A stretch of 64,000 bases of DNA from NCBI RefSeq assembly GCF_988242995.1, contig NZ_OZ547043.1, one strand, 5' to 3'. The notes beneath the pieces are model-generated. The model did not search any database and was not told the DNA's origin. It saw only the letters and a list, made by a program, of their open reading frames with translations. The position numbers were made by a program, and so were the translations under genes. This document shows, piece after piece, positions 32,849 to 35,800 of the stretch. Every line of letters starts with the position of its first letter. Position 1 is the first letter of the stretch.

Positions 32849-35800
32849 TTGAGCCAGGAATACACTGAAGACAAAGAAGTCACATTGACAAAGTTAAGTA
32901 GCGGCCGCCGCCTTCTGGAGGCGTTGCTGATCCTTATTGTCCTGTTTGCCGTCTGGTTGATGGCTGCCTTACTAAGCTTTAACCCTTCGGACCCCAGCTG
33001 GTCGCAAACGGCCTGGCATGAACCTATCCATAATTTAGGTGGGATGCCCGGTGCGTGGCTGGCAGATACGCTGTTCTTTATTTTTGGCGTGATGGCTTAC
33101 ACCATTCCCGTCATTATTGTCGGCGGTTGTTGGTTTGCCTGGCGTCATCAGTCCAGCGACGAATACATTGATTATTTTGCCGTTTCGCTACGCATCATTG
33201 GCGTTTTGGCGCTCATCCTTACCTCCTGTGGTCTGGCGGCAATCAACGCTGACGATATCTGGTATTTTGCCTCCGGTGGCGTCATTGGCAGCTTACTAAG
33301 CACTACGCTACAACCACTGCTACACAGTAGCGGGGGAACTATTGCGCTGCTCTGCGTTTGGGCTGCGGGTCTGACGCTGTTCACCGGTTGGTCATGGGTG
33401 ACCATTGCTGAAAAACTCGGCGGCTGGATTTTAAACATTCTCACCTTCGCCAGTAATCGTACACGTCGCGATGATACCTGGGTCGATGAAGATGAGTATG
33501 AAGATGACGAAGAGTATGAAGATGAAAATCACGGCAAACAGCATGAATCACGCCGTGCCCGTATTCTTCGCGGCGCGCTAGCGCGTCGTAAACGGTTGGC
33601 GGAAAAATTCATTAATCCGATGGGGCGGCAAACAGATGCTGCGTTGTTCTCCGGTAAGCGGATGGATGATGAAGAAGAGATTACCTACACTGCACGCGGT
33701 GTGGCTGCCGACCCTGACGACGTCCTCTTTTCGGGCAATCGTGCAACGCAGCCAGAATATGACGAGTACGATCCATTATTAAACGGTGCGCCAATTACCG
33801 AACCTGTTGCTGTAGCAGCTGCTGCTACCACGGCGACGCAAAGCAGGGCTGCACCGGTTGAACCTGTGACTCAGACGCCACCTGTTGCCTCTGTTGATGT
33901 TGCACCTGCACAACCTACAGTAGCCTGGCAGCCTGTACCGGGGCCACAAACGGGAGAGCCGGTGATTGCTCCGGCACCGGAAGGTTACCCACAGCAGCCA
34001 CAATATGCGCAGCCTGCAGTGCAATATAATGAGCCGCTGCAACAACCTGTACAGCCACAGCAGCCGTATTATGCGCCTGCGGCGGAACAACCTGTTCAGC
34101 AACCGTATTACGCAACTGCGCCGGAACAGTCTGCGCAACAGTCGTATTACGCCCCTGCGCCGGAACAGTCTGCGCAACAGCCGTATTACGCCCCTGCGCC
34201 AGAACAATCGGTGGCAGGTAACGCCTGGCAAGCCGAAGAGCAGCAATCCACTTTTGCTCCACAGTCTACATACCAGACTGAGCAAACTTATCAGCAGCCA
34301 GTCGCTCAGGAGCCGTTGTACCAACAGCCGCAACCTGTTGAACAGCAGCCTGTTGTGGAGCCTGAACCCGTTGTAGAAGAGACAAAACCCGCGCGTCCGC
34401 CGCTTTACTACTTTGAAGAAGTGGAAGAGAAGCGAGCCCGTGAACGTGAACAACTTGCGGTCTGGTATCAACCGATTCCAGAACCGGTTAAAGAACCAGA
34501 ACCGATCAAATCTTCGCTGAAAGCACCTTCTGTTGCAGCAGTACCTCCAGTAGAAGCCGCTGCCGCTGTTTCTCCGCTGGCATCTGGCGTGAAAAAAGCG
34601 ACACTGGCGACGGGGGCTGCCGCAACCGTTGCCGCGCCAGTCTTCAGTCTGGCAAATAGCGGTGGACCGCGTCCGCAGGTCAAAGAGGGGATTGGCCCGC
34701 AGTTGCCACGACCGAAACGTATCCGCGTGCCAACTCGTCGTGAACTGGCGTCTTACGGTATTAAGCTGCCCTCACAGCGTGCGGCAGAAGAAAAAGCCCG
34801 TGAAGCCCAGCGTAATCAGTACGATTCTGGCGATCAGTACAACGATGATGAAATCGATGCGATGCAGCAGGATGAACTGGCACGTCAGTTCGCCCAGACA
34901 CAGCAGCAACGCTATGGCGAACAGTATCAACATGATGTGCCCGTGAACGCAGAAGATGCAGATGCTGCGGCAGAGGCTGAACTGGCTCGTCAGTTTGCGC
35001 AAACTCAACAACAACGTTATTCCGGCGAACAACCGGCTGGGGCGAATCCGTTCTCGCTGGATGATTTTGAATTTTCGCCAATGAAAGCGTTGCTGGATGA
35101 TGGTCCACACGAACCGTTGTTTACGCCAATTGTTGAACCTGTACAGCAGCCGCAACAACCGGTTGCACCGCAGCAGCAGTATCAGCAGCCACAACAGCAG
35201 GTTGCGCCGCAGCCGCAGTATCAGCAGCCGCAACAGCCGGTTGCACCGCAGCAGCAATATCAGCAGCCACAACAACCGGTTGCACCGCAGCCGCAATATC
35301 AGCAGCCGCAACAGCCGGTTGCACCACAGCCGCAATATCAGCAGCCGCAACAGCCAGTTGCGCCGCAGCCGCATGATACCCTGCTTCATCCGCTGTTGAT
35401 GCGCAATGGTGACAGCCGTCCGTTGCATAAACCGACGACGCCGCTGCCTTCTCTGGATTTGCTGACGCCGCCGCCGAGCGAAGTGGAGCCGGTAGATACC
35501 TTTGCGCTTGAACAAATGGCGCGCCTGGTGGAAGCGCGTCTGGCTGATTTCCGTATTAAAGCCGATGTCGTCAATTATTCTCCGGGGCCGGTTATCACTC
35601 GCTTTGAATTGAACCTGGCACCGGGAGTAAAAGCGGCGCGTATTTCTAACTTGTCACGTGACCTTGCCCGTTCACTTTCGACGGTGGCGGTGCGTGTCGT
35701 TGAAGTTATTCCTGGCAAACCCTATGTAGGTCTGGAGTTACCGAATAAAAAACGACAAACCGTTTATCTGCGCGAAGTTTTGGATAACGCCAAATTCCGC

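Follow-up and report, generated by a model that had tools for sequence, protein, structure and literature searches.

The ftsK gene in the window, by which we mean the whole 64,000-nucleotide stretch of DNA that was analysed, is very probably an ordinary Escherichia coli allele, encoding a flexible linker tether that carries two independent in-frame 39-bp minisatellites, published as the typing loci ms06 and ms07/CVN001, whose copy number is nearly neutral. Repeat-length polymorphism of the ftsK linker is already known, and the allele found here is common and already deposited. Given that the arrays are known typing markers and the allele is a common one, we regard the finding as real but ordinary.

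Results

The window encodes an E. coli FtsK with a long, P/Q/A-rich linker

The ftsK reading frame begins with a TTG codon, a start common to all 23 ftsK alleles examined. Its product shares 99% amino-acid identity with K-12 FtsK, and this near-identity, together with the lrp-ftsK-lolA-rarA synteny, establishes orthology to E. coli FtsK. The protein has the domain set of an FtsK/SpoIIIE translocase, with an N-terminal 4TM domain and C-terminal alpha, beta and gamma domains, and its translation contains the Walker A motif GTTGSGKS.

32849-36916, + strand: ftsK coding sequence, TTG start, 1355 aa; lrp upstream, lolA/rarA downstream
32906-33421, + strand: FtsK_4TM membrane domain, aa 20-191 (Pfam PF13491, E = 5e-42)
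35444-35746, + strand: FtsK alpha domain, aa 866-966 (Pfam PF17854, E = 1e-29)
35768-36409, + strand: FtsK/SpoIIIE ATPase motor domain (beta, P-loop), aa 974-1187 (PF01580, E = 9e-88)
36716-36898, + strand: FtsK gamma domain, aa 1290-1350 (Pfam PF09397, E = 3e-28)

The linker, taken as the ∼aa 192-865 that separate the Pfam 4TM and alpha domains, is 674 aa long and contains 14% P, 15% Q and 13% A. It is thus like the FtsK_L of the FtsK/Xer literature, a P/Q/A-rich segment of ∼650-670 aa that runs from the 4TM domain to the alpha-beta-gamma motor.

The exact 1355-aa protein is already deposited at NCBI, where several accessions name it ‘DNA translocase FtsK [Escherichia coli]’, and it was seen on 59 contigs. 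Outside the repeats, the nucleotide identity of the window ftsK to 22 E. coli loci was 97.6-99.5%; pairwise identity of the same regions among those 22 loci was 97.15-100%, with a median of 98.16%. We considered that the window might belong to an unusual or non-E. coli lineage, whole-gene identity being only 95-99%, and rejected this because the non-repeat identity falls inside the E. coli range and NCBI labels the exact protein as E. coli. We gave no weight to the antisense open reading frames that cover the arrays on the minus strand, at 33779-34471 and 34772-35515, taking them to be incidental to coding sequence that is of low complexity and rich in CAG and CCG.

Two 39-bp arrays and a duplicated block lie within the linker

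The original prediction was that the linker holds several repeat families. This was borne out: two 39-bp arrays and a duplicated ELARQFA block were located, at positions that had been given accurately to within a few bases, and the five full 39-bp units predicted for the downstream array were seen at 35144-35374, followed by a further 36 nt.

33485-33526, + strand: acidic micro-repeat at the start of the linker (Tandem Repeats Finder, periods 18, 9 and 6), length-invariant in 23 alleles
34058-34213 (codon-aligned), + strand: array A1 (YYAPAPEQ), four 39-bp (13-codon) units
34874-34915, + strand: ELARQFA block (14 residues), first copy, aa 676-689; present in 23 of 23 alleles and conserved in Salmonella
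34979-35020, + strand: ELARQFA block (14 residues), second copy, aa 711-724
35144-35374 (codon-aligned), + strand: array A2, 77 aa in all: five complete 39-bp units and a partial one of 36 nt (12 residues)

Tandem Repeats Finder reported A1 at 34061-34209 (period 39, 3.8 copies, 84% matches, score 200) and A2 at 35144-35373 (period 39, 5.9 copies, 90% matches, score 369). Self-identity at a lag of 39 nt was 0.84 in A1 as compared with 0.36 in codon shuffles (z = 10.7), and 0.89 in A2 as compared with 0.50 (z = 11.7); in neither case did any of 5000 shuffles reach the observed value. The four A1 units of the window can be told apart from one another, with mutual identities of 80-90%. The two copies of the ELARQFA block, 35 residues apart, differ at 8 of 42 nt, yet all these differences are synonymous and there is no amino-acid difference between them. 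A common origin of A1 and A2 was also considered; the best rotation of one unit against the other gave 20 of 39 matches, a value reached by 80% of codon shuffles, and relatedness of the two arrays is therefore unsupported.

The additional residues relative to K-12 FtsK lie in A1

The ftsK gene of K-12 MG1655 is 3990 bp long and encodes 1329 aa, so the 26 extra codons that had been predicted for the window gene are real; the case in which K-12 FtsK would also be 1355 aa with an equal repeat count was checked, and K-12 differs in length and has two A1 units as against four. In a protein alignment all 26 residues absent from K-12 mapped to residues 417-442, inside A1, where the window has four YYAPAPEQ units and K-12 has two; A2 has the same length, 77 aa, in each. 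The earlier suggestion of two additional 39-bp units was thus correct as to their number and incorrect as to their place, since it had put them beside the downstream array, the only one for which it had given a 39-bp period. K-12 carries the shortest common allele of A1.

Length variation in E. coli is confined to A1 and A2

To place the window allele, ftsK was fetched from 22 complete E. coli genomes picked to represent the length classes found among 5426, giving 23 alleles with that of the window; being chosen by length class, these loci are not a random sample. Because many whole-gene megablast alignments were interrupted at the arrays, the lengths of the genes were taken from the annotated loci, and each protein was split at conserved anchor sequences to obtain segment lengths. 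All 23 alleles had an N-terminal segment of 404 aa, an inter-array segment of 311 aa and a C-terminal segment of 513 aa. A1 was 24, 37, 46 or 50 aa long, and A2 was 12, 64, 69, 77, 82, 90, 100, 103, 108 or 116 aa. Length variation in these E. coli alleles is therefore confined to the two arrays. The totals ran from 1277 to 1381 aa, with every reading frame intact, and at 1355 aa the window protein is mid-range. The description of its linker as expanded accordingly holds relative to K-12 and does not hold across E. coli.

The same total is reached by other combinations of A1 and A2 (37 + 90 and 24 + 103 aa), and strain B1.H1.39 has the 50 + 77 aa combination with its units in an order different from that of the window; FtsK length is thus homoplastic. 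To look for compensation between the arrays, as stabilising selection on total linker length would produce, A1 and A2 lengths were correlated; they gave a non-significant Spearman coefficient of -0.28 (p = 0.24) over 19 distinct alleles, which are phylogenetically non-independent.

The frequency of the A1 alleles was assessed by using A1 with 200-nt flanks as the query and examining 60 records spaced evenly down the ranking of 5426 complete genomes. Spans of 550 nt (four units), 511 nt (three) and 472 nt (two) were found in 18, 22 and 18 genomes, respectively, and other spans in two, which indicates that ∼30% of complete E. coli genomes share the A1 copy number of the window. A corresponding census of A2, with the longest allele as the BLAST query, gave array-spanning alignments in only 32 of 60 genomes, and within these A2 measured 168-348 nt; for the frequencies of A2 alleles we therefore use published CVN001 data.

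Sub-unit changes also occur. Strain NY1601 carries a rarer, 3.7-unit form of A1 with a 12-nt deletion, and the A2 arrays of some strains have additional 15-nt (QQPQY) or 9-nt indels that produce non-integer alleles; all these 9-, 12- and 15-nt indels are in frame. At the short extreme, A2 is reduced to 12 aa in strain EC529 and is 25 aa long in a Shigella sonnei entry. Healthy-looking complete genomes, drawn from many hosts, carried 1 to ∼9 units of A2 and 2-4 of A1, and copy number showed no obvious relation to source.

A1 and A2 are published typing markers

Primers for ms06 and ms07, as reprinted in PMC8215070 and PMC4553163, and for CVN001, which are annotated ‘ftsK’ (PMC11773471), place the following amplicons in the window, all of sizes inside the ranges published for these markers.

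33948-34326, + strand: ms06 MLVA amplicon, 379 bp; primers at 33948-33967 (+, one mismatch) and 34307-34326 (-, no mismatches)
34884-35470, + strand: ms07 MLVA amplicon, 587 bp; primers at 34884-34903 (+, no mismatches) and 35451-35470 (-, one mismatch)
35029-35466, + strand: CVN001 MLVA amplicon, 438 bp; primers at 35029-35049 (+) and 35445-35466 (-), both exact

The ms06 primers flank the 39-bp array A1, whose whole-unit variation gave 24, 37 and 50 aa among the 23 alleles and 472, 511 and 550 nt among the 60 genomes; the two are the identical locus with the same 39-bp unit. They differ in the single mismatch of the forward primer, and the integer scale of ms06 misses the 3.7-unit form of NY1601. 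The ms06 locus reportedly comes from the Shigella/E. coli panel of Gorge et al., and CVN001 is said to belong to the generic E. coli MLVA of Lindstedt et al. The published range of ms06 is 301-379 bp, with alleles 2, 3 and 4 (PMC8215070, PMC4553163), and the 379 bp of the window stands at the top of that range, as allele 4.

The CVN001 and ms07 primers flank the 39-bp array A2, which spans 12-116 aa across the 23 alleles; ms07 has been stated to be equivalent to CVN001 (PMC4553163), and we found no difference between these markers and A2 in locus or in the 39-bp unit. The copy number in the window equals that of K-12. Published alleles of CVN001/ms07 range over 4-8 in one source and 1-12 in another. 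Since ST131 is scored as CVN001 = 6 and has, among the sampled loci, an A2 of 90 aa, the 77-aa A2 of the window corresponds to allele 5. In a Swedish collection the CVN001 allele frequencies were 1% (allele 4), 40% (5), 40% (6), 13% (7) and 5% (8), and allele 5 is thus one of the two commonest in a published collection.

These correspondences confirm that a VNTR lies inside an essential gene, as had been predicted. The accompanying term ‘hypervariable’ overstates the case: the repeat units match imperfectly (84-90%), few alleles are recorded for the published markers and CVN001 is monomorphic within ST131.

Elsewhere in the window a 179-bp tandem repeat lies near a tRNA-Ser gene. Its identification with the MLVA locus ms09 was rejected, as the ms09 primers had no match in the window.

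The window ftsK is a recombinant mosaic allele

Unit-by-unit DNA maps showed that units 1 and 2 of the window A1 are identical to those of the three-unit type carried by Yu5 and SCU-105. Unit 3 is a hybrid, in which the head of the terminal unit of that type runs on into the tail of unit 2. Such a unit is what would be expected of a single in-register event of unequal exchange or slippage, together with one further substitution, in a three-unit Yu5-type allele. A comparable structure, an internal A-X-A-X duplication, is present in A2 of STEC384.

The complete genome of the O158:H23 strain CFIAFB20140388 has an A1 identical to that of the window (100% over the 550-nt A1 region) and a gene of equal length. 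The two genes differ at only two positions in the first 1612 nt and at 53 from position 1965 onward. The A2 map of the window, with the C-terminal (3') 1.5 kb of the gene, is identical to that of strain NY1601. The window ftsK is therefore a recombinant mosaic.

We suppose that copy number changes by in-register mispairing of the imperfect 39-bp units, either through replication slippage or through unequal homologous exchange; slippage and RecA-dependent unequal exchange are indistinguishable by sequence alone. Each such event would gain or lose whole 13-residue units and so keep the reading frame, and ftsK alleles are in addition exchanged among lineages through homologous recombination.

Purifying selection acts on the unit peptides, and A2 is shared with Salmonella

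The dN/dS ratio was 0.056 for the A2 units and 0.11 for the A1 units; the linker outside the repeats gave 0.05-0.07, and the membrane and motor domains gave 0.013-0.014. In A2, 39 distinct DNA units encode only 10 peptides. The 13-residue unit peptides are under purifying selection.

Salmonella enterica has a 39-bp ftsK VNTR of 9.3 copies, STTR7/SENTR2 (PMC2430564). This is the orthologue of A2: it lies in ftsK just upstream of the alpha domain, its period is likewise 39 bp and its unit peptide is identical. Salmonella ftsK has ∼9-10 A2 units and, unlike Escherichia, lacks A1, the place of the YYAPAPEQ units in its linker being taken by non-repetitive sequence. Both arrays are present in the cryptic Escherichia clades. 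A relative at 69% identity has an A2 built of six copies of a homogenised variant unit, QQPAQPVAPQQHY, which is a concerted-evolution pattern. The ELARQFA pair is kept in Salmonella, in the cryptic Escherichia clades and in the relative at 69% identity.

Discussion

Reviews portray the FtsK linker as a PQ-rich tether without fixed structure, which is needed for full activity, contacts the divisome proteins FtsQ, FtsL, FtsI and FtsZ, and varies in length between species; large deletions within it impair FtsK function (PMC5357621; PMC3870252). A1 and A2 form part of this flexible tether, which links membrane anchor and DNA-pumping motor. The functional literature on FtsK_L that we covered treats the linker in large blocks and does not deal with copy number within a species or with the ELARQFA pair. 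Natural changes of one to ∼eight units are tolerated, from which we infer that copy number acts as a nearly neutral lineage marker.

Could the four-unit A1 be an assembly artefact, arising from a mis-joined, collapsed or expanded repeat? Many deposited FtsK proteins are labelled ‘partial’ and stop within the arrays (of 11 fetched, three do so in A2), suggesting that short reads assemble poorly there. Nevertheless, the exact 1355-aa protein stands under several NCBI accessions and on 59 contigs, the 550-nt A1 region recurs with 100% identity in the complete genome of O158:H23 CFIAFB20140388, and ∼30% of complete genomes have a four-unit A1; furthermore, because the four units are only 80-90% identical and distinguishable, their collapse is not expected. 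We consider an artefact extremely improbable. A phase-variable contingency locus, which would turn FtsK on and off or alternate its forms, is scarcely credible either. Such loci do have tandem repeats within coding regions, as ftsK has, but the hallmark of frame-shifting is missing from these arrays: the 39-bp unit is a multiple of three, and the reading frame was intact in 23 of 23 alleles and across the 9-, 12- and 15-nt sub-unit indels. It is because all variation is in frame that we do not class the arrays as a contingency locus. Moreover, division requires ftsK, the units are not perfect copies of one another and CVN001 does not vary within ST131.

Adaptive tuning of copy number deserves more attention, although we think it very unlikely. 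On this account the number of units determines tether length or binding-motif valency, the optimum differs by lineage and the four-unit A1 is a functional expansion. The purifying selection on the unit peptides (dN/dS 0.06-0.11), the conservation of the position, period and unit peptide of A2 between Escherichia and Salmonella, and the impairment caused by large linker deletions are all consistent with it. On the other hand, A2 ranges from 1 to ∼9 units and A1 from 2 to 4 in healthy-looking genomes with no obvious link to source, and these natural changes amount to no more than ∼15% of a linker of ∼670 aa. In addition, when ftsK repeat alleles were swapped between two Salmonella Enteritidis strains no phenotype was seen in the single assay reported, one of egg-white survival (PMC6137255). 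Copy number could still have subtle fitness effects. We conclude that nearly neutral variation of two minisatellites in an ordinary E. coli ftsK allele is much the best account of the data.

A1 and A2 have served as routine typing markers in E. coli, Shigella and Salmonella since about 2007-2008, and strain differences in FtsK length are not to be taken for functional expansions. The arrays are also spots at which short-read assemblies can break or mis-count.

A modest question that the data raise is why a supposedly unstructured tether keeps a 13-residue unit and the ELARQFA duplicate under purifying selection across genera. Among the papers covered, which did not include the primary linker study (Dubarry 2010), we found none that explains the conservation of these peptides. 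The purifying selection on the unit peptides, together with the identical A2 unit of Salmonella, shows that the arrays are more than mere spacers. One reading, which we put forward as speculative and unlikely, is that the 13-residue units and the ELARQFA pair are sequence-specific multivalent interaction modules, which might bind a divisome partner, for instance, or mediate septal self-association; it is suggested by the dN/dS values of 0.06-0.11, by the identity of the A2 unit in Escherichia and Salmonella and by the purely synonymous differences between the ELARQFA copies. If it were true, copy-number variation would change the valency of FtsK and would subtly tune the coupling of division to chromosome clearance.

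Mosaic structure and repeats of ftsK

The ftsK allele of the window (32849–36916) is, by sequence comparison, a recombinant mosaic. Over its 5′ ∼1.6 kb it scarcely differs from the gene of the Escherichia coli O158:H23 strain CFIAFB20140388, while the 3′ ∼1.5 kb, together with A2, one of the two in-frame 39-bp arrays of the linker, is identical to that of strain NY1601; the breakpoint lies somewhere within gene positions 1613–1965.

The linker also carries a duplicated 14-residue block, the ELARQFA pair (amino acids 676–689 and 711–724). The two copies (34874–34915 and 34979–35020) differ at 8 of 42 nucleotides, and every one of these differences is synonymous. 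The pair was found in all 23 E. coli alleles compared (that of the window and 22 from complete genomes), and it is kept in Salmonella, where one copy reads ELARQFAASQQQRY. Taken together, the restriction of differences to synonymous sites, the presence in 23 alleles and the conservation in Salmonella suggest that the two blocks are a pair of functional motifs, so far uncharacterised, within the linker of FtsK.

A further repeat was flagged by TRF at the start of the linker:
33485–33526, acidic micro-repeat of the GATGAA type
Its length showed no variation among the 23 alleles.

A large share of the database FtsK entries that resemble the window linker (P0045, P0046 and P0053 among others) are labelled 'partial', and 3 of the 11 FtsK sequences fetched terminate within array A2. 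These observations suggest that the ftsK repeats are a frequent breaking point for draft assemblies made from short reads.

Repeats adjacent to tRNA-Ser

Three features cluster upstream of ftsK:
25022–25101, CRISPR repeat pair (Rfam CRISPR-DR4), the repeat beginning GTTCACTGCCGTACAGGCAG
25161–25518, two tandem copies of a 179-bp unit, 99% identical
25509–25596 (−), tRNA-Ser(GGA)

The two CRISPR-DR4 repeats are 60 nt apart, and so enclose a single spacer. They are placed between tRNA-Ser and a large open reading frame ending at 24809, clpA by position; the site between these genes is a known seat of orphan type I-F CRISPR remnants in E. coli. The 179-bp tandem pair directly abuts tRNA-Ser(GGA), and each copy includes a fragment resembling the 3′ end of the tRNA (TGGCGGTGAGGGGGG). 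The repeat period equals that of the MLVA locus ms09. Despite this equality, identification with ms09 was rejected, as the ms09 primers had no match anywhere in the 64-kb window.

IS200 copies flanking dmsABC

Downstream of ftsK lie:
40467–41179, IS200 copy 1 (713 bp), after serS
41140–41282 (−), STnc130 sRNA, an Rfam match in the serS–dmsA intergenic region
45344–46056, IS200 copy 2 (713 bp), after dmsC

Each IS200 copy encodes a 152-amino-acid Y1 transposase (PF01797, E = 7e-37), and the 5′ end of each matches Rfam STnc490, the IS200 antisense RNA art200. The STnc130 match covers the final ∼40 nt of the first copy, which ends at 41179; the IS200 insertion is therefore immediately next to this sRNA, as well as to the sequence that precedes dmsA. 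The two copies are 100% identical and flank the dmsABC operon in direct orientation; dmsABC could be lost or duplicated if the two recombined.
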